Shown here piece after piece: positions 2,628 to 35,749 of a stretch of 64,000 nucleotides of DNA (within the stretch, counting starts at the first letter, position 1; each line of letters starts with the position of its first letter). Position numbers and translations under genes: made by a program. Under the pieces are notes generated by a model. It saw only the letters and a list, made by a program, of their open reading frames with translations. It was not told where the DNA came from and did no database searches. Source of the DNA: Actinomycetota bacterium (lineage in GTDB: Bacteria; Actinomycetota; Thermoleophilia; UBA2241); the NCBI GenBank assembly GCA_012514235.1, contig JAAZAR010000159.1, positions 1,065 to 65,064 on the forward strand, written 5' to 3'.

Positions 2628-2728
2628 GCGGCTGACCGACGCGCGGCCGCCTTCCAGCGGTCCGGCGCCTGCGCGGCCGCCAAACGGGAACCCACAGAGA
2701 GTCTGCCAACGACGTCCTGGAGGTCGAG

Positions 2729-3187: not shown

Positions 3188-3193
3188 GCAGAG

Positions 3194-3237
3194 CAAGCGA
3201 AGGGCGGGGAGCGCACGCGCTCCCCGCCCTTCGCTTG
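3194..3237 (+). terminator. long GC hairpin immediately after the YciI-like gene
   Basis: CAAGCGAAGGGCGGGGAGCG...CGCTCCCCGCCCTTCGCTTG forms a stem of about 20 bp starting 7 nt after the stop. No U-tract follows. Confidence 0.55.
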
Positions 3238-3718: not shown

Positions 3719-3795
<77 letters not shown>

Positions 3796-3974
3796 GCAGG
3801 GCCTTGGAGTGTAGCGAGCCCGGGGAGGGAGCGTCAACCGTCCGCCGATGTTCCGGCGAGCGGCGTGCCCGGGCCTCGCCGGGCTGGATGCCGGGCCGGC
3901 TGCGGCGCCGCGACCGGCACCGATCCTGCAGAGAATCACGGCGCCGGATGGTGTGAGGTCCTCGGCTCCTGCCG

Positions 3975-9833: not shown

Positions 9834-9932
9834 CGGCGCCCGGCCGGCGCTGGGCCGGCGTGCGCCTCCGCCGGCGACACGTCGGCGCGGGAAGCGCAGG
9901 CGTGACGGCGGCCGTGGCGAACCGGTGATGCG

Positions 9933-12892: not shown

Positions 12893-12901
12893 CCAAGCCC
12901 G

Positions 12902-20677: not shown

Positions 20678-21904
20678 ATGAAGAAGCTGCTCGTGATCGC
20701 CAACCCGTACCCGCCGATGGCGAGCGCCGGGACGACCCGGGTGGTCCGCTTCATCCGGCACCTGCCGGACGAGGGCTGGCAGCCGTCCGTCCTCACCGCG
20801 AAGGCCGAGGGCCCGGCAGCGGTGCCGCCGGGCGTCCGCGTGGCCCGCGCCGCCGTGCCCTGGCCGAAACGGCTGCTCGGCGGCGGCCGCCGGAGCACGC
20901 GCATCAACCGCTGGGTGGCGGTGCCCGATCCCTACTTCGCCTGGATCGGGCCGGCGGTGCTCAAGGGCCGCGAGATCTTCAGACGCGAGCGCTTCGACGC
21001 GATCCTGAGCAGCTCTCCGCGCGCGAGCGTGCACCTTGCGGCCGCCGTACTCTCCGAGCACGCGGACGTGCCGTGGCTGGCAGACTACCGCGACCCGTGG
21101 TCCACCTACCAGTTCCGGCAGTACCCCACGCAGGCGCACAGAGCCGCCCACGAGAGACTGGAGGCGTGGGCGCTGCGGCGCGCCGCGGCCGTCACCGCCG
21201 TCAACCGGCCGATCGCCGACGACCTCGTCGCGCGGCATCCCTGGCTGGCCGGCCGGACCCACGTGCTGCCCAACGGCTTCGACCGCGCCGAGCAGCCGGC
21301 CGACGTGCGGCTCGGCGACGGCTTCTGGATCGTGCACACCGGCAGGCTGTACGGTCGCGAGCAGCAGGTCGCCGCCTTCCTCGAGGCGCTCGCGGCGCAG
21401 CCGCCGGAGGTCAAAGCCTTTTTCGTCGGCGTCGACGAGAGCCGGGTACGGCCGGACGCCGACCGGTTGGGCCTCGGCGACCGCGTGCGCGTGGAGCCGC
21501 TGGTACCGCTGCCGCTGGCGCTCGGCTACCAGCGTGCCGCGGACGCGCTCCTGCTCGTCAATGGGCGCCGGCCGGAGAGCATGTCCAGCAAGGTGTTCGA
21601 GTACCTGCAGGCCGGCCGGCCCATCTTCGCCATCTCGCCCGCCGGCTCCGCCGCCCGTGCCCTCTTCGAGGAGGTCGGCGGCGGCACGTGCGTGCTGCCC
21701 GACGACCCCATGGGAGGGCCGCTGGCCGACTTCGTCGCCGCGGCCCGCGCCGGCACGGCGCCCGTGGCCGATCCGGCCGCCCTGGGCCGCTACGAACTCG
21801 CCCAGCTCACGCGCGAGCTGGCCGCCATCCTCGACGAGCTCGCGGCGCACCCCTGGACGGCCGACCCTGACGACAGGGCGCCCTCGCAGGAGCCGCGGCG
21901 CTAA
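20678..21904 (+). CDS. glycosyltransferase, GT4-like
   Basis: 'MKKLLVIANPYPP...GTTRVVRF' at the N-terminus and 'MSSKVFEYLQAGRPIFAI' at the C-terminus (a GT-B EX7E-type region). Confidence 0.75.
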   Translation: MKKLLVIANPYPPMASAGTTRVVRFIRHLPDEGWQPSVLTAKAEGPAAVPPGVRVARAAVPWPKRLLGGGRRSTRINRWVAVPDPYFAWIGPAVLKGREIFRRERFDAILSSSPRASVHLAAAVLSEHADVPWLADYRDPWSTYQFRQYPTQAHRAAHERLEAWALRRAAAVTAVNRPIADDLVARHPWLAGRTHVLPNGFDRAEQPADVRLGDGFWIVHTGRLYGREQQVAAFLEALAAQPPEVKAFFVGVDESRVRPDADRLGLGDRVRVEPLVPLPLALGYQRAADALLLVNGRRPESMSSKVFEYLQAGRPIFAISPAGSAARALFEEVGGGTCVLPDDPMGGPLADFVAAARAGTAPVADPAALGRYELAQLTRELAAILDELAAHPWTADPDDRAPSQEPRR

Positions 21905-21913
21905 GATGCAGGC

Positions 21914-23524
21914 ATGACCGTGAGCTCAGGCACAAGGCCGCCGGACCATCCGGCCGCCCCAGGCGGTCGCGCGGACGGGCGGCGCTTCTCCGCCGCCGAC
22001 GCCGCGCTGATCGGCGGCGGCGCGGTCCTGACCGTGCTCGTGGCGGCGGCCGCCACGCGCAGCGCGCCGGCCGCCGTCGCCCTCCTCCTGGCCATCAGCC
22101 TCGTGGCGGTCGTGGCGCTCGGCCGCGAGCGTCTGGCGCGCGCCTCCGTGGGCGCCGTCCTCACGGCGTTGCTCGTCTCCCTGCCCGTGCTCGCACTGCT
22201 CGGGCCCTCGTTCGCACTGCCCGCGTTCCCGCAGGCGTTCCTCTTCCGCATCGTCCTCGCCGTCGTCCTCTACGCCGGCGTCTGTTACCTGCTGGTGCGC
22301 CGCGATCCTCTGCCTTTCGCCGCCAAGGACCTTCTGCTGCCGGCCGTGCTCTGGTTCGCCTGGCTCCTCCTGGGAGTGGTCTGGTCGCCCGACAAGCTCA
22401 CCGCCCTCAACCACATCGCCATCGTCGTCACCATGGCCGCCGTGCTGCTGGCGACGGCGGCGGCCGGCGGCACTCGCCGTCGCCTCGTCTGGTTCGGCGC
22501 CACCATGCTCCTCGGCTACGCGTTCATCGTCGGGTTCACGATCCTCGAGGCGAGGCTCGGCATCCGTCTGCCCACCTCCCGCCTGCTCACCGCCGTGACG
22601 TCACAGACCTATGCGGTCACCAGCGTCTTCCACAACCAGAACGACCTGGCCACGTACATCGTCATCTGCTGGCCGTTCATGCTCTGCGCCCTCTTCTTCA
22701 CGCGGCGCCTGCGGTGGATCGCGCTCACCCTCCTCTTCATGGCCATGGGCGCGGCGGCATTCGTGCGGACGGGCTCGCGATCGAGCCTGGTCGCGGCCGG
22801 CATCTCCTCGCTCGCGGCGATCGTCCTCTTCTGGCATCTCGGCCCCCGACTCTCGAGCCGCACCGGCAAGGTCGTGATGGGCCTCGTGATCGTCGTGATC
22901 CTGGCGGCCGCCGGCTGGCTTCTCTTCAACAACAGCTCCAACGACATGCTGCGGCAGTTCCGCCTGGAGGCGTTGCTCAGCCAGGCGCAGGCCAAGAAGG
23001 GGTCCGGCGCGATCCGCACGAGCCTGACCGAACGCGGGCTGGGCCTGGCAGGCGGCACGTGGCTGCTGGGCGCCGGACCAGGACAGGCCGAGGGCATCAT
23101 CGGCTCGGGCACCGACGCCCTTGGCATCACCAACCTCCACAACTGGTGGCTCGAGACCTACGCCAACGGCGGCCTCGTGGGGTTCGCCCTCCACTTCGTG
23201 TTCTTCGTGCTGCTCGTGGTGGCGCTGTGGCCGATCGCGAGGAGCGACCCCGATCCGCTGACGCGCTACCTCGCCAGCGGGACCTGGCTGGCGCTGCTCG
23301 GGTGGACCATCGGGTCGGTCGGACCGAGCAGCTCGGTGAGCTTCGCGCCCATGTGGATCCTGTACGGGCTCGCCCTCGCCGTCGTCTCCCGCTCCCGCCT
23401 CGCGGCGCGGGAGCGAGCCCTGACGACGGCCGCGGGCGAGCCCGACGACGCGGCAGCCGACACCGCCGCCGGCACGCGTGCCGACCCCGGCGGCGGACCC
23501 ACGGCTCCGGAGCCCGGCGCGTGA
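21914..23524 (+). CDS. O-antigen ligase/polymerase-like membrane protein (Wzy/WaaL family)
   Basis: At least 10 predicted TM segments and a 'NLHNWWLETYANGGLVGFALH' loop motif typical of the family. Confidence 0.7.
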   Translation: MTVSSGTRPPDHPAAPGGRADGRRFSAADAALIGGGAVLTVLVAAAATRSAPAAVALLLAISLVAVVALGRERLARASVGAVLTALLVSLPVLALLGPSFALPAFPQAFLFRIVLAVVLYAGVCYLLVRRDPLPFAAKDLLLPAVLWFAWLLLGVVWSPDKLTALNHIAIVVTMAAVLLATAAAGGTRRRLVWFGATMLLGYAFIVGFTILEARLGIRLPTSRLLTAVTSQTYAVTSVFHNQNDLATYIVICWPFMLCALFFTRRLRWIALTLLFMAMGAAAFVRTGSRSSLVAAGISSLAAIVLFWHLGPRLSSRTGKVVMGLVIVVILAAAGWLLFNNSSNDMLRQFRLEALLSQAQAKKGSGAIRTSLTERGLGLAGGTWLLGAGPGQAEGIIGSGTDALGITNLHNWWLETYANGGLVGFALHFVFFVLLVVALWPIARSDPDPLTRYLASGTWLALLGWTIGSVGPSSSVSFAPMWILYGLALAVVSRSRLAARERALTTAAGEPDDAAADTAAGTRADPGGGPTAPEPGA

Positions 23525-24717
23525 GGGTCCTCGTCGTCTCGCACCTGTACCCCTCCCCGGGCGTGGAGCGCCACCTGTTCGTGCACGAGCAACTGCTGAC
23601 GCTCCGCGAGCTCGGCGTGGAGCCGCACGTGATCTCGCCGACGCCGTGGGTGCCGCGGGTGCTCTGGCGCGACGAGCGCCAGCGGCGCCGCGGCGAGAAG
23701 CCCAGGCAGGCGGTCCGCGACGGCATCACCGCCGACTACCCACGCTTCGTCCAGCCTCCCAAACGCCTGCTGTTCGACCGCCTGGGCGACATCGCCTACA
23801 GGAGCGCGCGCTCGCTGCCGTCAGTGACCGCCGGGGGGTGGGACCTCATCCACGCGCACCAGGCGCTGCCGGACGGTGCCATGGCGCAGCGCCTGGCCGC
23901 CGACCTGCGCGTGCCCTGCGTCGTCACCGTGCACGGCGCCGACGTGTACCAGCACCTGCGCATGGGCGGCGGCGTCGAGAAGCGCGCCAAGGCGGTACTC
24001 GCCGCCGCCGACGCCGTGATGGCCAACTCGAGCGCCGTCGCCGGCCTGCTCGAGCGCGTGGTCGCGCCTGAGAAGCTCACCGTGGTGCTCAACGGGACGA
24101 CCGGCCTCGGCGAGTCGGTCGAGCCGGCGAGCGACTACCTGCCCGGCGAGCCCCTGGTACTGACGGTCGGGTACCTCATCGAGCGCAAGGGCATCCGCGA
24201 CCTCGTGGCGGCCCTGGGCTTGCTGCGCCGCCAGGGCCGCACCGTCCACCTCGCCATCGCCGGCGACGGGCCGCTGCGTGGCGCCCTGCAGGCGCAGGCC
24301 GCGCAGGAGGGCGTCGCCGACACCGTCCACTTCCTCGGCCGCGTGCCTCACGCGCGCGTGCTCGCACTCATGGCGCGCGCGCAGCTGGTGGCCTTGCCCA
24401 GCTGGGACGAGGCGTTCGGGCTCGTCTACACGGAGGCGATGGCGCAAGGCACGCCCGTCGTCGCCGGCAAGGGAGAGGGCCCCGAGGATTTCATCACCGA
24501 CGGTGAGAGCGGCTACCTCGTCCCGGTTCGCTCGCCCGATGCGCTGGCGAGTATCATTGCGCAGGTGCTGGACGACCCGGAGAAGGCCGCGGCCGTCGGC
24601 CAGGCCGGCCGCGCCGCCGCCCTCGAGCTGAGCTGGGAGCGCAACGCGCGGCTCACGCTCGGCGTGTACGAGCGCGTCCTCGCCGAAGCACCCCGAAAGG
24701 ACGCCAGTGCGGTTTGA
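23521..24717 (+). CDS. glycosyltransferase, GT4
   Basis: 'VRVLVVSHLYPSPG', 'HAHQALPDG' and 'EAFGLVYTEAMAQGTPVVAG'. The GTG start overlaps the upstream stop (GTGA). Confidence 0.85.
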   Translation: MRVLVVSHLYPSPGVERHLFVHEQLLTLRELGVEPHVISPTPWVPRVLWRDERQRRRGEKPRQAVRDGITADYPRFVQPPKRLLFDRLGDIAYRSARSLPSVTAGGWDLIHAHQALPDGAMAQRLAADLRVPCVVTVHGADVYQHLRMGGGVEKRAKAVLAAADAVMANSSAVAGLLERVVAPEKLTVVLNGTTGLGESVEPASDYLPGEPLVLTVGYLIERKGIRDLVAALGLLRRQGRTVHLAIAGDGPLRGALQAQAAQEGVADTVHFLGRVPHARVLALMARAQLVALPSWDEAFGLVYTEAMAQGTPVVAGKGEGPEDFITDGESGYLVPVRSPDALASIIAQVLDDPEKAAAVGQAGRAAALELSWERNARLTLGVYERVLAEAPRKDASAV

Positions 24718-25927
24718 CACGTTCGTACAGCAGTCCGCGGCGCGCCACCCGGCGCTCGTGTTCCAGGTCTCCTGGGCCAACGGCCTCGACATCATCCGTG
24801 ACCTCTCGGCCGAGGGCGTGCCGCTCCTGGCGCTCGACGCCAACGAGCGCGCCCTCGGCCTCCGCTCCCGGCTCGCCGCCGGCATGGTCTGCCCGGACCC
24901 TCGGGCGGACGAGGAGGCGTTCGTCGGCTTCCTCGAGGACCTCGGTCGCCGGCTGCCGTGCAAAGGCGTCCTCTTCCCGACCCACGACCAGTACATCTGG
25001 CCGATCTCGAAGCACGCGGAGCGCCTCGAGCCCTACTACTTCATCCCGTTCTCCCGCTGGGAGACCATGCGGCGCCTGCACGACAAGCGCGCCCAGATGG
25101 AGGCGGCCTGGCGCGTGCACGTCGATACGCCGAAGACCGTGTTCGTCGACTCTGCCGAGGATCTCGAGCGCGGCGCAGAGGTTGTCGGCTTCCCCTGCAT
25201 CTTCAAGCCCGTCGAGTCGCTGGCGTTCAAGACGCGCTTCCGGCGGCATGTGCTGGAGATCGGGTCCGCCAAGGAACTGCGCGAGACGTACGCCAAGGTG
25301 GACGATTGCGGTACGCTGATGATGCAGGACATCGTGCCGGGCGGAGACGAGGAGCTCTACACGCTGGGCTCGTACCTCGACGTGCAGAGCCGGCCGCTGG
25401 CCGTGTTCACCGGGCACAAGCTGCGCCAGCACCCGCCGCGGTTCGGCCACGTGAGCATGGCGGTGAGCCGCTGGGTGCCCGAGCTCGCCGAGGCGGGGCT
25501 CCGTCTCCTCGGCGAGCTCGGCTACCACGGCGTCAGCCAGGTCGAGTTCAAGCGCGACCCCCGTGACGGCAGGTACCGTCTCATGGAAGTCAACGCGCGC
25601 CACTGGATGTGGCATTCGCTCGCCACCGCCTGCGGCGTGAACCTCTCGCTCGCCGCCTATCGCGACGCCATCGGCGAGCCCTACATGTCGGCGCACCAGG
25701 TGGATGGGCTCAAATGGGTGGTCTCGTTCACCGATGCCCGCGACGCGTTCAGGCGCTGGCGTCGCGGCACGGAGAAGCTTCTGCCGTGGCTCGCGAGCTA
25801 CCGCGGCGTACGTGTCGACGGGCTGTACTCCCTCCGCGACCCCCTGCCCGGCGCGCTGATGACGGCGCGCCAGCTCAGGAACATCATCCGGCGCAGCGGC
25901 AAGCCGGCCGAAGGGGAGTCGGTATGA
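24707..25927 (+). CDS. ATP-grasp carboxylate-amine ligase-like protein (paralog 1)
   Basis: 'FPCIFKPVESLAFK', 'LMMQDIVPGGDEELYTLGSY', and 'HGVSQVEFKRDPRDGRYRLMEVNARHW' (an ATP-grasp Mg/ATP motif E..N). It overlaps the upstream gene by 11 nt. Confidence 0.75.
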   Translation: MRFDTFVQQSAARHPALVFQVSWANGLDIIRDLSAEGVPLLALDANERALGLRSRLAAGMVCPDPRADEEAFVGFLEDLGRRLPCKGVLFPTHDQYIWPISKHAERLEPYYFIPFSRWETMRRLHDKRAQMEAAWRVHVDTPKTVFVDSAEDLERGAEVVGFPCIFKPVESLAFKTRFRRHVLEIGSAKELRETYAKVDDCGTLMMQDIVPGGDEELYTLGSYLDVQSRPLAVFTGHKLRQHPPRFGHVSMAVSRWVPELAEAGLRLLGELGYHGVSQVEFKRDPRDGRYRLMEVNARHWMWHSLATACGVNLSLAAYRDAIGEPYMSAHQVDGLKWVVSFTDARDAFRRWRRGTEKLLPWLASYRGVRVDGLYSLRDPLPGALMTARQLRNIIRRSGKPAEGESV

Positions 25928-25967
25928 ACGCGCCGCTGGCGGCGCGCCGCTCCGGAAGGCGCGGACG

Positions 25968-27182
25968 ATGAGGCCGGAGCGGTTCTTCCGGGCGGCGGCC
26001 GCGAAGCCGCCCGCCGCCGTCTTCCAGGTCAGCTACTCCTGCGGCCTGGACATCCTGCGCGACCTCGGGCGCCACGGCGTGCCCATGCTGGCGCTCGATC
26101 CGGACCCCAAGGCGATAGGCCTGCGCTCGCGCTACGCCGCCGGCCGGGTCTGCCCCGACCCGCTCGTCGACGAGGAGGCGTTCCTCATCTGGCTGGAGAC
26201 GCTCGGGCGGTCGCTCCCGCAGCGCGCCGTCGTCTTCCCCAGCCACGACGAGTTCATCTGGCCGCTCTCGCGCTACGCCAGGCGGCTCGAGCCCTGGTTC
26301 ATCGTGCCGTTCTCTCGCTGGGACGTGATGAGCAAGGTGCACGACAAGCGCGCCCAGCTGGAGGCGGCCTGGCGCGCCGGCGTCGACACGCCGAAGACCG
26401 TCTTCGTCGGCTCCGGCGCGGAGCTCCAGGCCGCGGCCGGCCAGATCCGCTTCCCGGCGGTGCTCAAACCGGTCGAGTCGCTGGCGTTCAAGCTCCGCTT
26501 CCACCGCCACATCCTCGACGTCGCGACGCCGGACGACCTCGCACGCATCTACGACAAGGTGGACGATCTCGGCCTCCTGATGCTGCAGGAGCGCATCCCC
26601 GGAGGAGAGGACGAGCTCTGGACCGTCGGGTCCTACCTGGACGCGGAGTCGCGGCCGCTCGCGATGTTCACCGGCCACAAGCTGCGGCAGTACCCGCACG
26701 CCGGCGGCAGCTGCCTCGCCGGAGTGAGCCGCTGGGACCAGCGGCTGGCCGACGCCGCCCTGCGGCTGCTGCAGGAGCTCCACTTCCACGGCGTCAGCCA
26801 GGTGGAGTTCAAGCGCGACCCGCGGGACGGCCGCTTCTGCCTCATGGAGATCAACGCGCGGCACTGGAAGTGGCACGGGCTCGCCGCACAGTGCGGCGTG
26901 AACCTCTCGTTCGTCGCCTATCGAGACGCGATCGGCGATCCGTACCTCGCCCACCGGCAGCGGGACGGCGTCAAGTGGATCGTCGCCAACAAGGACGTGC
27001 CGCTGGCGCTGCTCGAGATCGCGAAGCGCGAGCGCAACGCCGGCGAGTACGTGCGCTCGCTGCGCGGCACACGCATGGACGGGCTGCACGCGATCGACGA
27101 CCCGCTGCCTGGCCTGCTCAATGCCGGCGCCGTGCTCAGGCAGGTCGTGACGCGCGCGCCGCGCGCGAGGGCGGACGTGTGA
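25968..27182 (+). CDS. ATP-grasp carboxylate-amine ligase-like protein (paralog 2)
   Basis: Collinear with paralog 1 over its full length ('FPAVLKPVESLAFK', 'HGVSQVEFKRDPRDGRFCLMEINARHW'). The two also share DNA-level similarity. Confidence 0.75.
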   Translation: MRPERFFRAAAAKPPAAVFQVSYSCGLDILRDLGRHGVPMLALDPDPKAIGLRSRYAAGRVCPDPLVDEEAFLIWLETLGRSLPQRAVVFPSHDEFIWPLSRYARRLEPWFIVPFSRWDVMSKVHDKRAQLEAAWRAGVDTPKTVFVGSGAELQAAAGQIRFPAVLKPVESLAFKLRFHRHILDVATPDDLARIYDKVDDLGLLMLQERIPGGEDELWTVGSYLDAESRPLAMFTGHKLRQYPHAGGSCLAGVSRWDQRLADAALRLLQELHFHGVSQVEFKRDPRDGRFCLMEINARHWKWHGLAAQCGVNLSFVAYRDAIGDPYLAHRQRDGVKWIVANKDVPLALLEIAKRERNAGEYVRSLRGTRMDGLHAIDDPLPGLLNAGAVLRQVVTRAPRARADV

Positions 27183-27192
27183 GGATGCGCGG

Positions 27193-28662
27193 GTGAGCGC
27201 GCCGCGACTGCAGGTCTTCATCGGCGCCCCGGAGGCATTCGCCCCTCGCGCCGCCTGGGTACTTGAGACGCTGCTGACGCCGCTTGGCGCCCGAGCCGCG
27301 GTGACCCGCGACCCGGCCGAGGCGAGCGGTGCGGCGCTGGCGTACGCCGCCGAGCCCGTCCCGGGCGTCCCGACGATCCCCTGCGACGTCGGCGCCATGG
27401 AGACGCTCGCCGCTCGGCGGCCGTTGGCTGCCGGCGCCTTCGCGGCCGTCGGGAGCGGCGACGGCGCGGCCGTGGCCGCCTGGCCGGCCGACCCCGGCGC
27501 CGGCTTCGCCGTCCCGTTCGACCTCGTCGCCTCGGCGTTCGTGCTGCTCGCCTGCTGGGACGAGCTCACCACCGCCGAGCGCGACCGGTACGGGCGACTC
27601 CCGTACTCGGCGAGCATCTTCGCCGCCAACCCTTTGCTGCGCATCGAGGAGCCGGCGGTGGACCGCTATGCCGAGCTCGTGCGCGGCGTGCTGGCGCCGC
27701 GCCTCGCCGAGCTCGGCCTCGCGCCGCTGCCGCCGGCCGGGAGCGTCTGGGGAGCGCGCGGCCGCTTCGCGATCGCGCTCACCCACGACCTCGACAACCT
27801 GTGGCGGTGGACCCGGCGCGGCTTCGCCGCCGCCGGCTACCGCACCGCCCGTGCCGTCCGGCACGGGAAGGGACGCGCCGTCCTCAGAGAGCTCGGAGAC
27901 GGCGCCGACTGGCTCGTCCGCCACCTGCCGCGTCGCACGGACCCGTTCTGGACGTTCCCGCTCATCCTTGACGGCGAAGACGCGCGAGGTGTCTCCTCCA
28001 CCTTCTACGTCATCGCCCGGCACACGCACCGGCAGGATGGTAACCAGCCGGAGACCTATCGGCGGCGCATCCCGGAGGCGCTCAAGCTCGTCACCTCAGC
28101 CGAGCGTGAGGTCGGCCTGCACGGCAACGACGCCGACCTGCGGTCGCTCGGCGGCCTCGAACGCGACCGGCACGCTCTCTCCGGGCGCGTCGGCCGCGCC
28201 GTCGAGGGCATCCGCTACCACTACCTGCGCGCCCTCTACCACGACACGCTGCCGATGCTCGATCAGGCGGGCTTCACCTACGACACATCCCTGGCGTTCG
28301 CCGAGCATGAGGGCTTCCGTTGCGGCTGCTCCTTCCCGTTCCACCCGTACCGGCTGGCCGACGAGCGTCCGCTCGACCTCGTCGAGCTGCCGCTCGCGGT
28401 GATGGACGGCACCCTGCAGGAGCCGCACTACCGTGGACTGAGCGCGGCGGACGCCGAGCCGGCTGCCGCCTCGGTGCTCGTCCGCGCTCTCCGGAGCGGG
28501 GGCGCGGTGAGCCTGCTGTGGCACAACAACCGCTTCGACAGACGGCTCTCGCGCGGCTACGACCGTGTGTACTGGCGTCTGGTGGACGAGGCCCTTGCGC
28601 ACGGCGCCTGGTGCACGAGCGCCGGCGAGATCGTGGCCCGCTGGAAGAAAGCCACAGCGTGA
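27193..28662 (+). CDS. polysaccharide-deacetylase-like protein (C-terminal half) with unknown N-terminal domain
   Basis: 'FAIALTHDLDNLW', 'STFYVIARH', 'EVGLHGND' and 'IRYHYL' resemble CE4/NodB-type motifs. This is a tentative recognition. Confidence 0.5.
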   Translation: MSAPRLQVFIGAPEAFAPRAAWVLETLLTPLGARAAVTRDPAEASGAALAYAAEPVPGVPTIPCDVGAMETLAARRPLAAGAFAAVGSGDGAAVAAWPADPGAGFAVPFDLVASAFVLLACWDELTTAERDRYGRLPYSASIFAANPLLRIEEPAVDRYAELVRGVLAPRLAELGLAPLPPAGSVWGARGRFAIALTHDLDNLWRWTRRGFAAAGYRTARAVRHGKGRAVLRELGDGADWLVRHLPRRTDPFWTFPLILDGEDARGVSSTFYVIARHTHRQDGNQPETYRRRIPEALKLVTSAEREVGLHGNDADLRSLGGLERDRHALSGRVGRAVEGIRYHYLRALYHDTLPMLDQAGFTYDTSLAFAEHEGFRCGCSFPFHPYRLADERPLDLVELPLAVMDGTLQEPHYRGLSAADAEPAAASVLVRALRSGGAVSLLWHNNRFDRRLSRGYDRVYWRLVDEALAHGAWCTSAGEIVARWKKATA

Positions 28663-29792
28663 TCCGGGTCCTGCATCTGAGCGTCGTCCACCGGCAGGAC
28701 GACCCACGCATCTACGAGCGCGAGTGCCGGACGCTGTCCGAGGCCGGCTACCAGGTGATGTACATGGCGCCCGGGGCGGAGGAGCGCCGCGACGACGTCG
28801 GCGTGGTCCTGGCGCCGCTGCCGCAGCGCAGCCGCAGCACCCGGTTCCTCAGCTCACGCGAGATCGTCCGGGCGCTGCTCAGGCTGCGCCCCCACGTCGT
28901 GCACGCCCACGATCCCGAGCTGCTCACCCTGTTCCCCGCCATAAGGAAGCTGGTGCCGCGGCTGGTCTACGACATGCACGAGTACGTACCGGAGGCGGTC
29001 GCCGGCAAGCCGTACATCCCCAGCCGCATCCGGCCGGTGGCCTCGCGGACGACGGCCGTCGCCCAGAGGAGCCTGGCGGCGCTGGGCTCGGGCGTCGTCG
29101 TGGTCACCGAGGATCAGCTGGCTGCCCTGGGGCCGAAGCCGGCGCTGCGGCTGGTGCTGCCCAACTACCCGCGCGTGGAGCGGTTCGAGGGCGCCGAGCC
29201 GGTCCCGGAGCTCGCCGCCGACCCGCGCCTCAAGCTGGTCTACGTGGGCAGCCTCTCGCGCGCCCGGGGCTGCACCATGATGCTCGACGTCATGGAGCGG
29301 CTCTCGCCGGATGAGGCGGTGCTCTACCTGGGCGGCACCTTCAACGATCCGGCACTCGAGCTGGAGGTCGGCGAGCGGCTCGCTTTGGGCCTCGCCGACC
29401 GCGTCACGCTCCTCGGGCGCATCCCGCCCCCGGAGCTGCCCCGCTACCTCGCGGCGGCCGACGTGGTCTGGGTACCGTCGCAGCCTGACCGCCAGTACAG
29501 CCACCCGACCATCCCGACCAAGCTGCTCGAAGGCATGACGATGGGGCTCGCCGCGCTGGTCAGCGACATGCCGGGGCGCGGCGAGCTCGTCCGCGAGGAG
29601 GGCTGCGGCGTCGCCGTCCCTCCGGGCGTGGAGGGCCACCTTGACGGCCTGCGGCGGCTCCTCGCCGGGCGCGCCGATCTGGCGGAGATGGGCGCTCGCG
29701 GCCGCTCCGCGGTCGAGCGCCTGTACAGCTGGGAGGCGACCCAGGGCGATTTGGTAGACTTTTACGGTTCGCTCTGCGCCGGGCTCGCCTGA
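28659..29792 (+). CDS. glycosyltransferase, GT4
   Basis: 'VIRVLHLSVVH', 'VHAHDPELL', and 'HPTIPTKLLEGMTMGLAALVSD'. It shares a GTGA overlap with the upstream gene. Confidence 0.8.
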   Translation: MIRVLHLSVVHRQDDPRIYERECRTLSEAGYQVMYMAPGAEERRDDVGVVLAPLPQRSRSTRFLSSREIVRALLRLRPHVVHAHDPELLTLFPAIRKLVPRLVYDMHEYVPEAVAGKPYIPSRIRPVASRTTAVAQRSLAALGSGVVVVTEDQLAALGPKPALRLVLPNYPRVERFEGAEPVPELAADPRLKLVYVGSLSRARGCTMMLDVMERLSPDEAVLYLGGTFNDPALELEVGERLALGLADRVTLLGRIPPPELPRYLAAADVVWVPSQPDRQYSHPTIPTKLLEGMTMGLAALVSDMPGRGELVREEGCGVAVPPGVEGHLDGLRRLLAGRADLAEMGARGRSAVERLYSWEATQGDLVDFYGSLCAGLA

Positions 29793-29854
29793 CGGCCACC
29801 CGGCGCCCAGCGACCACACGGGCGCCCGGCGCCTCATCAGAGGGAGATCCTCAC

Positions 29855-30493
29855 GTGAACATCGAGAGCTTCAAGAACGTCCTGGTCCTCGCCCCGCACA
29901 CGGACGACGGCGAGTTCGGGTGCGGCGGGACCATGGCACGCCTCATCGAGAACGGCGTCACGGTCACCTATGCCGCCTTCAGCACCGCCGCCAAGAGCGT
30001 TCCTGAGGGGTTCCCCAAGGACGTGCTCAAGCACGAGGTCAGGGCCGCCACCGGGGTGCTCGGCATCCCGCCAGAGGACCTCAAGGTGTACGACTTCGAG
30101 GTGCGGACCTTCCCCACGGTGCGACAGGACATCCTCGAGGAGATGATCGTCCTGCAGCGCGACCTCGACCCCGACTGCGTGCTGCTGCCGGCGCTCATCG
30201 ACCTCCATCAGGACCACAAGACGATCGCCGAGGAAGGCCTGCGGGCGTTCAAGCGGACGACCGTGCTGGCCTACGAGATCCCGTGGAACAACCTCAACTT
30301 CTCGCAGCAGGCCTACGTGCGGCTCGAGGAGCGGCACATCGAGAAGAAGGTGAAGGCCCTGCAGTGCTACGCCAGCCAGGGCCACCGCAACTACCTGAAC
30401 GAGGACTACATCCGCAACGTCGCCCTCACCCGCGGCATCAACATCAGCTGCGGCTACGCCGAGGTCTTCGAGGTCTACCGCTGGATCCTGTGA
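29855..30493 (+). CDS. PIG-L/LmbE-family N-acetyl-sugar deacetylase
   Basis: 'VLVLAPHTDDGEFGCGGT' (an AHPDDE-type zinc motif) and 'HQDHK'. The GTG start is preceded by AGAGGGAG. Confidence 0.85.
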   Translation: MNIESFKNVLVLAPHTDDGEFGCGGTMARLIENGVTVTYAAFSTAAKSVPEGFPKDVLKHEVRAATGVLGIPPEDLKVYDFEVRTFPTVRQDILEEMIVLQRDLDPDCVLLPALIDLHQDHKTIAEEGLRAFKRTTVLAYEIPWNNLNFSQQAYVRLEERHIEKKVKALQCYASQGHRNYLNEDYIRNVALTRGINISCGYAEVFEVYRWIL

Positions 30494-30541
30494 CCCTCAC
30501 CGCCGACCCTCGTTCCCTCGTCTGACCGCGCCGGAGACCGC

Positions 30542-31585
30542 ATGACGCTGCCGCCACTCAAGCTCGTCCTCACCGCCGCCGGCTGCCCCGGAGCCAGCAC
30601 GCTGATCCGCATGCTCAAGGCCAACGGCGAGCGGGAGATCGTCATCCACGGCGTGGACATGCGCCCCGACGCCGTGGGACGGTTCCTGTGCGACGGCTTC
30701 AGCATCGTCCCGCCGGGCGCCTCGCCGGACTACATCCAGGCGCTCGCCGAGGTGGTCGAGCGGGAGCGGCCGGACCTGCTCTTCGTCCAGAGCTCGCACG
30801 AGATCGAGACGGTGGCGCGCCACCGCGACGTGTTCGAGGCGCTCGGCGCCCGCGTCCTCGCGGACGGCGTGCGCGGCATCGAGATCGCCTCGGACAAGGC
30901 GGTCATGCATGCCGCCTGCTCCGAGATCCCGGTGCCGCAGCCGGTGCTGCTGCGGCCGGCGACCCTCGAGGAGTTCGTCGCCGGCGCCCACGAGCTCGGC
31001 TACCCGGACGTGCCCGTGTGCTTCAAGCCGCCGGTCGCCAAGGGATCGCGGGGCTTCCGCATCCTCTCGGCGGAGATCGACCGCGTCCACGAGCTGCTCC
31101 ACGAGAAGCCGATCAACCGCTACATGACGCTCGACGACTTCGTCGACCTCTTCACCGGCTACGAGCCGTTCCCGCAGCTCATGCTGATGGAGTACGTCGA
31201 CGCCCCCGAGATCACCGTCGACCTCTTCGCCGACAAGGGGGAGGTCGTCCTCTACCAGACGCGCACGAGAGAGGAGTTCCTCACCGGGCTCGCCATGGCC
31301 TTCAAGACCATCGACCGCCCGGACCTCGTGGAGCTGACGCGCAAGGTCGTACGGCACCTCGACCTGGACTACTACCAGAGCGTGCAGTGGATCGGCGGCA
31401 AGCTCCTGGAGATCAACCCACGCGTCAGTACGTTCGTGTACCAGGAGGACTTCATCATCCCGTACCTCGGCATCAAGTACACGCTCGGTGAGCTGGACGC
31501 CGACGACGTGGCCGACATCCAGGCGCGGGTGCGCACGAGCCGGCGTTCAGTACGCTACTACGACCAGGTCTTCTGGGACGACTGA
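30542..31585 (+). CDS. ATP-grasp domain protein (CPS-large-subunit-like ligase)
   Basis: 'KLVLTAAGCPGASTLIRMLK', 'VCFKPPVAKGSRGFRIL', 'LMLMEYVDAPEITVDLF' and 'KLLEINPRVS' follow the ATP-grasp pattern. Confidence 0.75.
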   Translation: MTLPPLKLVLTAAGCPGASTLIRMLKANGEREIVIHGVDMRPDAVGRFLCDGFSIVPPGASPDYIQALAEVVERERPDLLFVQSSHEIETVARHRDVFEALGARVLADGVRGIEIASDKAVMHAACSEIPVPQPVLLRPATLEEFVAGAHELGYPDVPVCFKPPVAKGSRGFRILSAEIDRVHELLHEKPINRYMTLDDFVDLFTGYEPFPQLMLMEYVDAPEITVDLFADKGEVVLYQTRTREEFLTGLAMAFKTIDRPDLVELTRKVVRHLDLDYYQSVQWIGGKLLEINPRVSTFVYQEDFIIPYLGIKYTLGELDADDVADIQARVRTSRRSVRYYDQVFWDD

Positions 31586-31631
31586 TGGAGCCGGCGGGCG
31601 GAGCCGAGCCGGCCGAGGAGGCGCACGGCAC

Positions 31632-32927
31632 GTGCACATCCTGTTCCTGACGCACTACTTCACGCCCGAGAACAACGCCCCGGCCGCGCGCGTGCACGGC
31701 ATGGCGCGGGAGTGGGCCCGCAGCGGGCACCGCGTCACGGTGCTGACCTGCGCGCCCAACGTCCCTGCGGGCGTCGTCTACGAAGGCTACAAGAACAAGC
31801 TGATCCAGCAGGAGTGGATCGACGGCATCCGTACGCTCCGCGTGTGGACGTGGCTGGCGGCCAACAAGGGGCGTGTGCGCCGCGGGCTGAACTACCTGTC
31901 GTATCTCGCCGCTGCCGGCGCGGCCGGTCCGCTCGTGAGGCCGCGCGCCGACGTCGTCATCGCCACCAGCCCGCAGTTCTTCGCCGGCTGGGCGGGCTGG
32001 CCGGTCGCCAGAGCCCACGGCGCCCCGTTCGTGCTCGAGATCCGGGACATCTGGCCGGACTCCATCGTCGCCGTCGGCGCCCTGCCCGACGGACGGATCA
32101 TCCGCACGCTCGCCAGGCTCGAGAAGGCGCTGTACGACGGCGCCGACCACATCGTCGCCGTCGGCGACGGCTACAGGATGAACATGATCCGCAAGGGCGT
32201 CGGACCGTCGAAGATCAGCGTGGTGACCAACGGCGTCGACGTAGACCTCTTCCAACCGCGCGAGCCTGACCGCGGATTGCGTGCGCGGCTCGGCCTCTCC
32301 GACGAGACGTTCGTCGTCACGTTCGCCGGCACCATCGGCATGGCCAGCGATCTCGGCGTGGTGCTCGACGCCGCCCGGCTGCTCCGCGGCGAGGGCCGCG
32401 ACGACATCGCCTTCCTGCTCGTCGGCGACGGTGCGCAGCGCGCCGACCTCGAAGCCCGGGCGCGCGCGGAGGGTCTCCCGAACGTCGTCTTCACCGGCCT
32501 CGTGCCGCGCCCGGAACTGCCCGCCTATCTGGCCAGCAGCGACGCCTGCCTCGCCCACTTCCGCAAGCAGGACCTCTTCCAGATGATCCTGCCCAACAAG
32601 TTCTTCGAGAACGCGGCCATGGAGCGACCGATCCTGCTCGGGTTCGAGGGCGAGGCGCGGGCGATGCTGCACGAGGCGGACTGCGGCATCGCCTTCGAGC
32701 CGTCCAACCCCGCGGCGCTGGCGGCGGCGGCCGAGCAGCTCGCCGACACCCCGCCGGAAGAGCGGCGGCGACTCGGCGAGAACGGCCGCCGCTACGTCCT
32801 CGAGCACTTCGACCGCCGCCGCCTGGCGCACGACTACCTCGAGATCCTCGAGCGCGTGCGCGCCGCCCACGCACGCGGCCGGCGGCGGGCTCCGTCAGCG
32901 ACGCCGCCGCCGACTGCGGTACCATGA
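31632..32927 (+). CDS. glycosyltransferase, GT4 (WbuB-like)
   Basis: 'VHILFLTHYFTPENNAPAARVHGMAREW', 'LEIRDIWPDS' and 'ILPNKFFENAAMERPILLG'. Confidence 0.85.
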   Translation: MHILFLTHYFTPENNAPAARVHGMAREWARSGHRVTVLTCAPNVPAGVVYEGYKNKLIQQEWIDGIRTLRVWTWLAANKGRVRRGLNYLSYLAAAGAAGPLVRPRADVVIATSPQFFAGWAGWPVARAHGAPFVLEIRDIWPDSIVAVGALPDGRIIRTLARLEKALYDGADHIVAVGDGYRMNMIRKGVGPSKISVVTNGVDVDLFQPREPDRGLRARLGLSDETFVVTFAGTIGMASDLGVVLDAARLLRGEGRDDIAFLLVGDGAQRADLEARARAEGLPNVVFTGLVPRPELPAYLASSDACLAHFRKQDLFQMILPNKFFENAAMERPILLGFEGEARAMLHEADCGIAFEPSNPAALAAAAEQLADTPPEERRRLGENGRRYVLEHFDRRRLAHDYLEILERVRAAHARGRRRAPSATPPPTAVP

Positions 32928-33835
32928 CCCGAAGCAATCAGCCTCCGGAGGAGCGCATGAGCGACGACACCACCATCGACGTCGGTTCCTGGTTCGCCAC
33001 GCTCGCCCGCGCGTGGTGGGTGATCGTCGGCCTCGTCGTGATCGGCGTGGTGGCTGGGGCGGTCGTCACGCTCGCCCAGCCGGACGAGTACACCGCCACG
33101 GCCTCCGTCTACATCGGCCAGACCACGGACGCCAACGGCAACGCCATGGCGGGCCTCAACTCCAATGCGAAGGCCGCGGTGCAACTGCTGTCCAGCCAGG
33201 TCGCGCTGAACGAAGCCGCGAAGCGCACGGGCATGGGCATCTCGGCGGGGCGACTGCGCAAGGAGACGACCATCGAGACACCGTCGTCGACGGTCAAGAC
33301 GTCCACCTCGGTCGTCAACATCATCGTCATCAGCGTGACGGACACCGACCCGGAGCGCGCCGCCGCAGCCGCCAACGCGCTCGCCGAGGTCCTGCTCGAC
33401 AAGCTCGAGTCGAGCGTGGACGAGAAGATCGCCCTGCTCCAGCGACAGCTGGAGGACCAGCAGGCGGACTATGACGCGGCCACCGCCCGCAGCGCCGCCG
33501 CCCAGAAGGCGCTGGACGCCATCGGCCGGGGCGGCGGCTCAGCCGCCGAGCAGGCCACGGCATCCGCCCCGTACCTGGTCCTCGTGCAGGCGGCGGCCAC
33601 CGAGAAGCAGTCGCTCACGTCGTCCATCCAGAAGACCCAGCTCCAGCTGCTCACGGCCACCCAGGTCGAGCAGCCGCGCGTGCTGCACGAGGCCGGTGTG
33701 CCGGACTCGCCCAGCGGGCCGAAGATGACGGTCAACGTGGCCGTCGGCGCCCTGGCCGGCTTCGTCATCGGCGTCATCGTCGCGTTCGCGCGCCGGGGCC
33801 TCGCGGAGCGGCGCGCCGCCCGAGCGGCAGCCTGA
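32924..33835 (+). CDS. Wzz-like polysaccharide co-polymerase (chain-length determinant), no kinase domain
   Basis: An N-terminal TM 'WWVIVGLVVIGVVAGAVV', a coiled-coil-like middle, and a C-terminal TM 'VNVAVGALAGFVIGVIVAF'. It has an ATGA overlap with the upstream gene. An alternative start at 32957 has a strong GGAGGAG SD. Confidence 0.7.
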   Translation: MTRSNQPPEERMSDDTTIDVGSWFATLARAWWVIVGLVVIGVVAGAVVTLAQPDEYTATASVYIGQTTDANGNAMAGLNSNAKAAVQLLSSQVALNEAAKRTGMGISAGRLRKETTIETPSSTVKTSTSVVNIIVISVTDTDPERAAAAANALAEVLLDKLESSVDEKIALLQRQLEDQQADYDAATARSAAAQKALDAIGRGGGSAAEQATASAPYLVLVQAAATEKQSLTSSIQKTQLQLLTATQVEQPRVLHEAGVPDSPSGPKMTVNVAVGALAGFVIGVIVAFARRGLAERRAARAAA

Positions 33836-34798: not shown

Positions 34799-35749
34799 TC
34801 ACTCGCATGTCCCGCGCGCGCAGGCCATCAGTGAAAGCAGTTCGTAGGCTACCGTGGCGGCGACGATCGCCGTGAGGTTGCTGCTGTCCAGCTCGGGGAC
34901 GACCTCCACGACATCGGCGCCGGCGAGGTCCAGCCCCCGACAGCCGCGGATCAGCGCCAGCGCCTGAGCGGAGGTCGGCCCGCCGATCTCCGGCGTGCCG
35001 ACCGCCGGCGCGAAGCCCGGGTCGAAGAAGTCGACGTCGACGGTCACGAACGCCTTGCTCGAGCCGATCTCGTCCACGGCGGCGGAGACGACGCCGGTGC
35101 CCAGCTGCGCGAGGTCGTCCCACGGGACGACCGTGAACCCGAGCTCGCGCGCCCGCTCGTACTCGTCCGGCGCGTCGAGCCCGCCGCGCATGCCGAGGAG
35201 GGCGGAACGCGACGCGTCGACGAGGCCCTCCTCCGCGGCGCGACGGATGACCGTGCTGTGGACGTGCGGCTCGTCCCCGCTCTCCTCCAGGCAGTCGGTG
35301 TGCGCTCCGAAGTGCAGCAGCGCGAGAGGCCCGTGCGCGGCGGCGGCAGCTCGCAGCTCGGCGAGGGTCACTGTGTGGTCGCCGCCGATGCCGAGCGGTA
35401 CGGCTTCGGCCTCGTGGACCTGGGACAGCGCGGACTGCATCGCCTCGAGACTGCGATCGGTGAAGCCGGCGATCACGCGAGCGTCCCCGCCGTCCACCAC
35501 CGAGAGCCGGTCGAACACGGCCACGCGCTGCGCCGGGTTGTAGGTGGGGTGCAGCGTGAGAGAAGCCTCGCGCACCGCGCGGGGTCCGAAACGGGCCCCC
35601 GTGCGCACGGCGAGGCCCGTGTCGAACGGCAGGCCGACGACGGCGACGTCCACGTCGTCGTACTGGGTGACGTGCGGCAGACGCAGGAACGTCGTCACGC
35701 CGGCGATCCGCGGCCCCCGCTCGCCGCCTTCCGGTCCGTATCCCTTCAT
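34799..35749 (-). CDS. ureohydrolase (arginase/agmatinase/guanidino-acid hydrolase family), non-canonical metal motif
   Basis: 'GIGGDHTV' and 'TVDVDFFDPGFAP' are canonical. The expected 'DAHxD' motif reads 'FGAHTD' (codons ttc gga gcg cac acc gac). Confidence 0.85.
   Translation of the reverse strand: MKGYGPEGGERGPRIAGVTTFLRLPHVTQYDDVDVAVVGLPFDTGLAVRTGARFGPRAVREASLTLHPTYNPAQRVAVFDRLSVVDGGDARVIAGFTDRSLEAMQSALSQVHEAEAVPLGIGGDHTVTLAELRAAAAAHGPLALLHFGAHTDCLEESGDEPHVHSTVIRRAAEEGLVDASRSALLGMRGGLDAPDEYERARELGFTVVPWDDLAQLGTGVVSAAVDEIGSSKAFVTVDVDFFDPGFAPAVGTPEIGGPTSAQALALIRGCRGLDLAGADVVEVVPELDSSNLTAIVAATVAYELLSLMACARGTCE

Follow-up and report, generated by a model that had tools for sequence, protein, structure and literature searches.

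In the synthesis of mycothiol (MshA/MshB/MshC) and bacillithiol (BshA/BshB/BshC), a GT4 enzyme transfers GlcNAc, a PIG-L enzyme carries out a zinc-dependent deacetylation and an ATP-dependent ligation takes place on the GlcN amine, a logic that the genes studied here resemble. In Porphyromonas gingivalis and Tannerella forsythia, VimE and VimA deacetylate and then aminoacylate a glycan precursor (PMC7468200). VimE is a CE4 deacetylase and VimA a Fem-like transferase of the Wbp/Vim linking-sugar pathway, and both were proposed to act at the nucleotide-sugar level (PMC7468200). For the HS:2 capsule of Campylobacter jejuni, the C-terminal TupA-like amidoligase of Cj1438 takes its carboxylate from GlcA, with a phospho-amine as the nucleophile (PMC11800379).

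A Wzx/Wzy/Wzz locus with two deacetylase and ATP-grasp sets

The window, that is, the whole stretch of 64,000 nucleotides analysed here, comes from a Thermoleophilia MAG of an uncultured soil actinobacterium. An earlier note on this DNA had reported three consecutive genes, for a GT4 glycosyltransferase, a PIG-L deacetylase with its zinc motif and an ATP-grasp enzyme, in a Wzx/Wzy locus; open reading frames, Pfam hits and motifs confirmed this arrangement. The three frames are co-directional, and the locus around them brings together the flippase, polymerase, chain-length regulator and glycosyltransferases of a Wzx/Wzy-dependent pathway, with four GT4 genes beside Wzx, Wzy_C and Wzz:

12140-13495, + strand: ComA phosphosulfolactate synthase (12140-12892; Pfam ComA, 308 bits) and histidine phosphatase (12902-13495; Pfam His_Phos_1, 154 bits)
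18901-20625, + strand: Wzx-type flippase (Pfam Polysacc_synt, 67.6 bits); start uncertain, 18763 or 18901
20678-21904, + strand: GT4 'a', conserved core glycosyltransferase of the locus, kept in related loci (Pfam)
21914-23524, + strand: Wzy-type polymerase (Pfam Wzy_C, 52.7 bits)
23521-24717, + strand: GT4 'b', variable locus member, present or absent among relatives (Pfam Glycos_transf_1, 134.9 bits for the longer frame)
24707-27182, + strand: tandem ATP-grasp paralogues A (24707-25927) and B (25968-27182) (Pfam CPSase_L_D2)
27193-28662, + strand: DUF7033/VimE-like CE4-type sugar deacetylase (Pfam DUF7033, 42 bits; NCBIfam VimE, 117 bits, cut-off 440)
28659-29792, + strand: GT4 'c' (Pfam GT4 domains)
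29855-30493, + strand: PIG-L/LmbE-family zinc de-N-acetylase, 212 aa, cytoplasmic, first half of the proposed module (Pfam PF02585)
30542-31585, + strand: ATP-grasp ligase 'C', 347 aa, of the ATPgrasp_Ter/PylC-like_N type, second half of the proposed module (Pfam)
31632-32927, + strand: WcaI-like GT4 'd' (NCBIfam WcaI family, 175.7 bits); start read from the sequence
32924-33835, + strand: Wzz-type chain-length determinant (Pfam Wzz, 42.3 bits; GNVR, 29.4 bits)

The gaps between GT4 'c', the PIG-L gene, ligase C and GT4 'd' measure 62, 48 and 46 nucleotides, and no intergenic terminator-like site was found on the + strand from 28 to 33 kb. GC3 was of the coding type (0.87-0.95) in the PIG-L and ATP-grasp frames and in most neighbouring genes. 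The GT4 'c' frame failed this screen, and its assignment stands on Pfam hits to Glyco_trans_1_4 (68 bits), Glycos_transf_1 (63.8 bits) and Glyco_transf_4 (38.7 bits), which cover both halves of the GT-B fold (Glyco_transf_4 N-domain and Glycos_transf_1 C-domain); it begins with a GTG that shares bases with the stop codon, TGA, of the gene before it (GTGA). The same two domains are found in the frame 31488-32927, in which we take GT4 'd' to start at 31632. ORF 17589-18707 has no family match, and among the scanned genes of the window, to which this search was confined, we recognised no priming phosphoglycosyl transferase of the WbaP/WecA type.

The PIG-L gene, the only one of its kind in the genome, is preceded by a GAGGGAG ribosome-binding site. 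Its product scores 57.4 bits against PF02585 (cut-off 28.2), covers model positions 1-128 of 129 and carries LAPHTDDGEFGCGG, the zinc motif pointed out in the earlier note. The (A/P)H(P/T)DD and HxDH signatures appear as APHTDDGE at residues 13-20 and as HQDH, the second metal motif, at residues 118-121. Its closest relatives of known structure are TT1542, diacetylchitobiose deacetylase, BcZBP and BshB1; every solved relative that we found has a GlcNAc glycoside as its substrate and, to our knowledge, characterised relatives act on such glycosides, never on nucleotide sugars.

Ligase C scores 53.2 bits against ATPgrasp_Ter (PF15632; cut-off 29.1), a family of which we know no assayed member, and 30.1 bits against PylC-like_N. 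Across 45 homologues, E290, N292 and R294 (the E-x-N-x-R of LEINPR) and K119 are invariant, and K162 is nearly so (90% or more). The AlphaFold2 model (mean pLDDT 95.6) adopts the ATP-grasp fold, and Foldseek matched it with a probability of 1.00 to many ATP-grasp structures; the earlier note, too, had placed this ligase in a superfamily other than those of thiol synthesis. The nearest structure is the uncharacterised 2pn1 (Foldseek E 2.5e-20, TM 0.68-0.76; 18% sequence identity), and the stand-alone 2pn1/PRK12767 'carbamoyl phosphate synthase-like' ATP-grasp proteins are the best structural and NCBIfam matches. However, the best score against PRK12767-type models, 64.7 bits, lies far under the cut-offs (218 bits or more), and these proteins are functionally uncharacterised. 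In all, 1016 representative clusters match ligase C at E<=1e-10. We found no characterised homologue of it, nor any clustering with a characterised non-glycan enzyme, the outcome against which the earlier note had weighed its proposal. Ligase C has no TupA-like Pfam match, which places it outside the TupA-like (Cj1438C type) subfamily.

A second deacetylase and ATP-grasp set in the same locus, formed by the VimE-like gene and ATP-grasp A and B, was missed in the earlier note, which also overlooked the VimE/VimA precedent and the adjacent ComA module. ATP-grasp A and B accompany the VimE-like deacetylase in relatives, as well as in loci of Thermotogota and Thermoplasmatales. The VimE-like protein falls short of the VimE equivalog, and the window holds no FemAB-like (VimA-type) gene; one is present in a related locus (L002).

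Conservation of the PIG-L and ligase pair

The conserved unit is the PIG-L and ATP-grasp pair, not the triad that includes the GT4. These two genes, of established identity and with intact catalytic motifs, encode cytoplasmic proteins, stand in a glycan context and are adjacent across phyla. Our survey of the class (201 genomes) found the ligase in 55 genomes, 52 of them with the PIG-L orthologue and three without it; another seven genomes carry that orthologue but no ligase. Direct adjacency was seen in 26 of 29 genomes of the window's family and in 53 of the 86 loci fetched. PIG-L precedes an adjacent ligase in Thermotogota, Chloroflexota, Planctomycetota, Saccharibacteria and another actinomycete, and follows it in Bathyarchaeota, Promethearchaeota (Asgard), Thermoplasmatales and Hadarchaeota, where stop and start codons often overlap. 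The ligase and PIG-L trees contain the same major clades, and the partner PIG-Ls form one group, distant from other PIG-L paralogues: the two genes co-evolve across phyla. This enzyme pair is widespread and unstudied.

Glycosyltransferases, DegT, flippases and acetyltransferases make up most neighbours of the pair; in 12 loci from outside the Thermoleophilia these are mainly GT4/GT2, DegT, Wzx, hexapeptide transferases, WecB and Bac_transf. All Thermoleophilia loci, and most of the distant ones, have the pair flanked by Wzx, Wzy, Wzz and glycosyltransferase genes. Of the lineages examined, a single Asgard subclade departs from this glycan-gene setting. The pair is accessory: several complete genomes of the same genus lack it. 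On a Haloarcula plasmid a non-homologous replacement of the deacetylase occurs, with a ligase homologue (34% identity) in the order CE4 deacetylase, glycosyltransferase, ATP-grasp.

Among 50 loci with an adjacent pair, the upstream neighbour is a GT4 in 23, including a Thermotogota (L067) and a Chloroflexota (L070) locus; in other loci that position is occupied by Wzy, by a VimE-like deacetylase or by unrelated genes. The earlier formula 'glycosylate, deacetylate, ligate' remains a reasonable description, but the triad is not supported as a functional unit. GT4 'c' is a frequent, non-obligatory neighbour and a candidate donor enzyme for the GlcNAc-type residue; the commonest downstream neighbour is the WcaI-like GT4 'd' (33 of 50 loci).

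A proposed tailoring module and its substrate

We propose that PIG-L and ATP-grasp C probably act together as a two-enzyme module that tailors a surface polysaccharide made by the Wzx/Wzy/Wzz route. A GT4, likely GT4 'c', would add a GlcNAc-type residue to an undecaprenyl-diphosphate-linked repeat unit at the cytoplasmic face, and PIG-L would strip the N-acetyl group by zinc-dependent hydrolysis. ATP-grasp C would then convert a free carboxylic acid into an acyl phosphate and pass it to the freed amine, yielding an N-acyl-glucosamine with a non-acetyl substituent, after which GT4 'd' would extend the unit, Wzx flip it, Wzy polymerise it and Wzz set the chain length. One of two options offered in the earlier note, that a lipid-linked repeat unit of a Wzx/Wzy pathway is decorated, fits everything that we found.

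Is the amine exposed by the deacetylase also the nucleophile of the ligase, as we infer? The two enzymes could instead act on the same glycan without acting in sequence, PIG-L leaving a free, positively charged GlcN and ligase C amidating the carboxylate of a uronic acid with an amine or amino acid, or building an amino-acid side chain. A sugar may just as well supply the carboxylate for an ATP-grasp enzyme: Cj1438C amidates capsule glucuronate (PMC11800379). Haloarchaeal ligase homologues (30-34% identity) adjoin nucleotide-sugar dehydrogenases, with a HAD phosphatase as well in Haloarcula, and the MAG has two such dehydrogenases, neither on the window's contig. In the Gaiellaceae, PIG-L and ligase are not adjacent: they are separated by 0.6-36 kb and in many cases differ in strand, and the ligase adjoins a 4,6-dehydratase/DegT pair and a second ligase; given this separation and these neighbours, the amine need not come from PIG-L. 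We nevertheless consider independent action unlikely: neither the window's contig nor any of the related loci that we inspected has a nucleotide-sugar dehydrogenase, Cj1438C belongs to another, TupA-like, ATP-grasp subfamily, and the close, often translationally coupled adjacency and congruent trees in two domains of life are hard to explain without a shared intermediate.

The substrate of the proposed module would be lipid-linked rather than nucleotide-linked. A nucleotide sugar (UDP-GlcNAc or a UDP-diamino sugar) edited before transfer would follow the VimE/VimA precedent, which was drawn for nucleotide sugars (PMC7468200), and the association of the pair with varied glycosyltransferases, without a fixed partner, fits a donor-level change usable by any of them. 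However, the solved PIG-L relatives work on glycosides, and the gene immediately before PIG-L is a GT4 in roughly half of the loci, two distant phyla included, so that we regard editing at this level as quite improbable.

A soluble product was the other option of the earlier note, which had raised a small GlcN conjugate akin to mycothiol or bacillithiol. GT4, PIG-L and ATP-grasp would then make a GlcN-amide, such as a low-molecular-weight thiol or sulfonate replacing mycothiol, and would lie in the glycan locus by chance. In favour of this reading, the steps come in the order known from MshA/B/C and BshA/B/C, MshC is missing from the lineage, and one Asgard ligase subclade lies in a small-molecule-like operon (aminotransferase, ligase, XcbC-like lyase and ComA, with CysH alongside) without glycan genes; that ligase, however, forms a separate long-branch clade without PIG-L. 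The closest named NCBIfam model to our PIG-L is BshB1 (TIGR04001), at 56.5 bits against a cut-off of 182.5, and BshB2 (TIGR04000) reaches 39.3 against 195.25; NCBIfam gave no match to MshB or Mca, and a PDB search no MshB at E<=10. GT4 'c' scores 24.2 bits against MshA (cut-off 462.5) and, like PIG-L with BshB, lies far under the BshA/MshA cut-offs. No MshC above the cut-off was found in 21 related genomes, the best score (about 276 bits against 485) being consistent with CysRS. Judged by these comparisons, a mycothiol- or bacillithiol-like thiol pathway appears very unlikely. The unconserved GT4 partner, the constant flanking of the pair by Wzx, Wzy, Wzz and glycosyltransferases in Thermoleophilia and its patchy presence within a genus, unlike that of a core redox cofactor, make any soluble product of these genes highly improbable.

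Candidate acids and comparison with known pathways

Which acid would ligase C attach? Recurrent linkage to ComA and its phosphatase, cysteate synthase and CysH, from which we infer the acid's identity, suggests that it may be sulfonated (sulfolactate or cysteate). The window ComA scores 268.6 bits against NCBIfam arch_ComA (cut-off 280). In locus L053, the ComA and phosphatase genes are contiguous and co-directional with GT4-Wzy-GT4-PIG-L-ligase, and within the window's family a genome has either both the ComA module and the pair or neither; sister families that lack the pair can carry ComA as well. In two Asgard loci, the ligase-PIG-L operon directly adjoins genes for a cysteate synthase (549 bits; NCBIfam equivalog cut-off 325) and for CysH, and ComA, CysH and CysC lie 5-8 kb from PIG-L in the Gaiellaceae. 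Only 11-12 of 20 distant ligase-bearing genomes have ComA or cysteate synthase.

Since ComA and the phosphatase are encoded at the locus, 3-sulfolactate might be put forward as the leading candidate acid for ligase C. We tentatively suggest, as a possibility on the doubtful side, that the module places a sulfonated N-acyl group on surface-glycan glucosamine: 3-sulfolactate, from ComA and phosphatase, in Thermoleophilia, and cysteate, from the adjacent synthase, in Asgard. If true, this would produce permanently anionic, sulfonate-bearing amino sugars, a class of which we have found no description so far, by a tRNA-independent ATP-grasp route to N-acyl amino sugars common to bacteria and archaea.

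The bacterial coenzyme M pathway, with XcbB (ComA) and XcbC (PMC9457059), resembles the window in that ComA is encoded at the edge of the window's glycan locus. In two Asgard loci (L069 and L081), an aminotransferase and an XcbC-like lyase-ComA pair stand on either side of a ligase homologue. However, a histidine phosphatase follows ComA in the window, suggesting sulfolactate rather than sulfoacrylate; XcbC, XcbD and XcbE were not found there, and nothing in the window indicates coenzyme M production. Cj1438C likewise forms an amide by ATP-grasp chemistry on a capsule sugar during cytoplasmic assembly, but there the sugar supplies the carboxylate and the enzyme has no deacetylase partner. From mycothiol and bacillithiol synthesis the window genes differ in the ligase superfamily, in being embedded in a Wzx/Wzy locus and in being accessory within the genus. 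The Wbp/Vim pathway resembles the proposed module in that the N-acetyl group of an amino sugar in a surface glycan is swapped for another amide-linked group, Ser or Gly in that case. The means differ: the window deacetylase has the PIG-L rather than the CE4 fold, and in place of a Fem/GNAT-type transferase the ligase is an ATP-grasp enzyme, predicted to use a free acid and ATP.

The pair and its locus

The GT4 glycosyltransferase, PIG-L deacetylase and ATP-grasp genes described in the earlier note were recovered at exactly the same coordinates, each with a Pfam match, on a contig of 70% GC from a 2.7-Mb MAG that is 78% complete. The taxon names carried by its close homologues and by related contigs point to Thermoleophilia (phylum Actinomycetota). 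The GT4 gene begins with a GTG that shares bases with the stop codon before it (GTGA), and a ribosome-binding site, GAGGGAG, lies just upstream of PIG-L. The metal and catalytic motifs of the PIG-L translation, HTDD and HQDH, are both intact; the ATP-grasp product (hereafter ligase C) retains the E-x-N-x-R motif and the conserved lysines, and its structure is predicted confidently (pLDDT 95.6).

Genes of the glycan locus (window coordinates, strand, product)
about 18901-20625, + strand, Wzx
20678-21904, + strand, GT4 'a'
21914-23524, + strand, Wzy
23521-24717, + strand, GT4 'b'
24707-25927, + strand, ATP-grasp A
25968-27182, + strand, ATP-grasp B
27193-28662, + strand, DUF7033 / VimE-like deacetylase
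28659-29792, + strand, GT4 'c'
29855-30493, + strand, PIG-L
30542-31585, + strand, ATP-grasp C (ligase C)
31632-32927, + strand, WcaI-like GT4 'd'
32924-33835, + strand, Wzz

From 28 to 33 kb, the + strand showed no intergenic terminator-like site. On the 5' side, the glycan block is preceded by genes for DegT, DUF354, LysR, the phosphosulfolactate synthase ComA and a histidine phosphatase, and also by a DltD-like protein with MBOAT and a GH73-like gene. ComA and the gene that follows it span 12140-13495, and the latter encodes a histidine phosphatase, not ComB. An arginase-like gene flanks the locus at 34799-35749.

From the gene order of the + strand, two sets of deacetylase and ATP-grasp genes share this locus. 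The second, tandem ATP-grasp A/B with the VimE-like DUF7033 deacetylase (24707-28662), has counterparts in Thermotogota (L067), Thermoplasmatales (L079) and Gaiellaceae-like loci (L080, L085 and L089).

Conservation and family placement

Ligase C occurs in 55 of the 201 class genomes sampled, 52 of which also have the PIG-L orthologue; the source genome carries a single copy of each. In the window's family, PIG-L precedes the ligase with a gap of less than 100 nt in 26 of 29 genomes, and in Gaiellaceae-like genomes both genes lie in the same region, 0.6-36 kb apart. Within the genus, several near-complete genomes are wholly without the pair. One congener (G140:C4:719295-726886) retains only short pieces of PIG-L (residues 2-69) and ComA (1-61) about 7 kb apart, remnants which suggest that the whole locus was decayed or deleted. 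Related contigs share the chromosomal site, with ComA and the phosphatase on one side and Wzz, CN-hydrolase, arginase-like and TrpB2 genes on the other, and differ in the glycosyltransferases found there, the usual pattern for a surface-antigen locus.

The earlier note viewed GT4 'c', PIG-L and ligase C as a functional triad. This is not borne out: in the 50 loci where PIG-L and ligase adjoin, the upstream neighbour is a GT4 'c'-like gene in just 23, a VimE-like one in 8, Wzy in 4 and something else in the rest. GT4 'd' lies downstream in 33. It is thus the pair, and not the triad, that stays constant. In the Gaiellaceae-like family, as seen in locus L006 (11412-16377), ligase C sits beside an L-amino-acid-ligase-type ATP-grasp gene (LAL_C2 domain) and is also flanked by a conserved 280-aa protein without family match, a truncated glycosyltransferase, Wzx, and 4,6-dehydratase and DegT genes in divergent orientation; PIG-L is found 4 kb off, with genes for a methyladenine glycosylase and a chromate transporter in between.

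The ligase family comprises 1016 representative clusters (E<=1e-10). Scanning the genome collection, we found homologues of 42-50% identity in Bacteria (Chloroflexota, Thermotogota, Planctomycetota and Saccharibacteria) and in Archaea (Bathyarchaeota, Hadarchaeota, Thermoplasmatota, MGII and several Asgard lineages). The PIG-L orthologue adjoins the ligase in most loci outside the class, either before it (L067, L070, L072, L083, L088) or after it, with frequent overlap of stop and start codons (L068, L073, L074, L079, L084). A complete GT4/PIG-L/ligase/GT4 arrangement is present in a Thermotogota locus (L067), and a Chloroflexota locus (L070) has GT4/PIG-L/ligase with another GT4 about 1.3 kb downstream. 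The pair is adjacent in 53 of the 86 loci with a full-length ligase. Major clades agree between the ligase tree and that of the partner PIG-Ls, which fall far from other PIG-L paralogues of the same genomes. In 12 loci from outside Thermoleophilia, the neighbours are mostly GT4/GT2, DegT, Wzx, hexapeptide transferases, WecB and Bac_transf. Tree agreement and glycan neighbours thus identify the pair as a mobile, co-evolving, glycan-associated module.

More distant homologues (30-34% identity) lie in glycan clusters of haloarchaeal plasmids, namely Haloferax mediterranei pHME505 (L091) and Haloarcula sp. GH36 (L092), alongside DUF354 proteins; in the window, a DUF354 gene (9906-11027) and DegT form a pair ahead of the glycan locus. 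In a 611-aa protein of the representative library (P0127), an ATP-grasp of the ligase family (44% identity) is joined to a WbqC-like domain (PF08889, 182 bits). We take WbqC to be an uncharacterised family of O-antigen clusters, and our literature search found nothing on its function.

Could the pair belong to a pathway of the mycothiol or bacillithiol type, whose logic the earlier note saw mirrored in the triad? We placed PIG-L relative to MshB, BshB and other LmbE clades by model scores and PDB ranks. It scores 56.5 bits against BshB1, for an NCBIfam cut-off of 182.5, and has no MshB or Mca match in NCBIfam; the PDB search returned no MshB even at E=10, the nearest entries being TT1542, archaeal diacetylchitobiose deacetylase, BcZBP and BshB1. 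GT4 'c' reaches 24 bits against MshA, and no MshC scores above cut-off among 21 related genomes. Since scores fall below the cut-offs, MshC is absent and several near-complete congeners lack the pair, a core thiol-cofactor pathway is very unlikely. We thus abandoned a small thiol as main reading, on these grounds and because of the constant glycan context.

PDB sequence, fold and NCBIfam searches and annotated plasmids revealed no characterised enzyme with which the ligase clusters. By sequence, the top match in the PDB is carbamoyl-phosphate synthetase (E 1e-4); by fold, it is the uncharacterised 2pn1, ahead of generic biotin carboxylases, BacD and PurT; NCBIfam returned PRK12767-like models alone, far under cut-off, and the annotated plasmid homologues, from haloarchaeal glycan clusters, are labelled just 'ATP-grasp domain-containing protein'. 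None of these matches is informative on substrate.

A putative exchange of acyl groups

All the solved PIG-L relatives found in the PDB search act on a GlcNAc glycoside. ATP-grasp enzymes require one carboxylate and one nucleophile, and the sole product of a de-N-acetylase that a ligase can use is the free amine. In the Haloarcula plasmid, the homologue comes last in the order CE4 deacetylase, glycosyltransferase, ATP-grasp. For these reasons, and given the precedent of the Wbp/Vim pathway (see below), we read the pair as an acetyl-for-acyl exchange: PIG-L would strip the acetyl from a GlcNAc-type residue, and ligase C would install another acyl on the same residue. The main rival explanation is that the two enzymes act independently, the ligase amidating a uronate as the ATP-grasp enzyme Cj1438C does (PMC11800379). 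However, a dehydrogenase is absent from the contig and the PIG-L and ligase genes are tightly coupled, so that we hold independent action to be unlikely.

As to where the exchange would occur, the translations of both proteins are short and devoid of a hydrophobic N-terminal segment, and the ligase needs ATP, so that both must act before Wzx flipping. The substrate is most likely an undecaprenyl-PP-linked repeat unit, since about half of the loci have a GT4 ahead of PIG-L; a nucleotide sugar is a less probable alternative.

Candidate acids and significance

Which acid would be installed? Gene neighbourhoods, in which sulfonate-synthesis genes recur, raise the possibility, doubtful as yet, of a sulfonated acyl group, sulfolactate here and cysteate in Asgard archaea. 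In the window's family, the locus is bordered upstream by ComA and the histidine phosphatase. ComA and the pair are there either both present or both missing, but they are physically linked and hence do not provide independent evidence. One related locus (L053) has ComA/phosphatase (2357-3818) contiguous and co-directional with GT4/Wzy/GT4/PIG-L/ligase/GT4/DegT/Wzz, and ligase C is the sole ATP-grasp detected there with the window's proteins as queries. In Gaiellaceae, genes for a TtdB-like hydratase subunit, ComA, CysH and CysC cluster 5-8 kb from PIG-L. In two Promethearchaeota loci (L073, 7328-12794, and L074), cysteate synthase (TIGR03844, 549 bits versus an equivalog cut-off of 325) and CysH are divergent beside an operon of AsnC, ligase, PIG-L and a second ATP-grasp; we know of no coenzyme M synthesis in these archaea.

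Two other Asgard loci (L069, 8836-14210, and L081, 8692-14229) have an operon for a class I/II aminotransferase, an ATP-grasp that shares 46% identity with ligase C, an XcbC-like lyase (487 bits; for XcbC chemistry see PMC9457059) and ComA, with CysH divergent and neither PIG-L nor glycan genes. Such an operon has the appearance of a small-molecule pathway for a sulfonate, so far undescribed, in archaea that are not methanogens.

Several observations stand against the sulfonate link. In the tree, the ligases of these last two Asgard operons branch apart from the others, as a long-branch clade with no PIG-L; sister families devoid of the pair also have ComA; and, of 20 distant genomes that carry the ligase, only 11-12 encode ComA or cysteate synthase. 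Cysteate synthase exceeds its cut-off in 4 of these 20, with a split match in one more, and ComA is present in just 7. This count, the sister families and the separate clade do not support ComA as a universal ligase partner. Our literature search found nothing on cysteoyl or sulfolactyl groups.

A further ComA paralogue of the source genome lies on a different contig (G000:C153). In two related loci, the histidine phosphatase following ComA is fused to an arginase-family domain (538 aa; L002, 1-589) or directly followed by an arginase-family gene (L001, 3397-4907).

If the acid is indeed a sulfonate made by the adjacent ComA or cysteate synthase, these two enzymes would gain a role beyond methanogens and coenzyme M. 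The product would be an anionic sugar of a new type, and one would have a genomic marker for it in Asgard archaea and in Thermoleophilia from soil.

Surface glycans of bacteria and archaea commonly contain amino sugars with seryl, glycyl, alanyl, glyceroyl or other N-acyl groups, and to our knowledge most enzymes adding these non-acetyl groups are not known. The PIG-L/ATP-grasp module, which recurs beside glycan genes in at least nine bacterial and archaeal phyla, is a candidate general mechanism for swapping the acetyl, and one that is easy to assay. We found no mention of such a PIG-L/LmbE and ATP-grasp pairing in the literature. The pair is real and widespread, and is probably an uncharacterised variant of known glycan tailoring and very unlikely to be a thiol-cofactor pathway. 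In the Wbp/Vim pathway, VimE deacetylates a glycan precursor and VimA then transfers Ser or Gly (PMC7468200). The same deacetylate-then-acylate logic would apply here, and the window itself has a VimE-like gene with two ATP-grasp genes.
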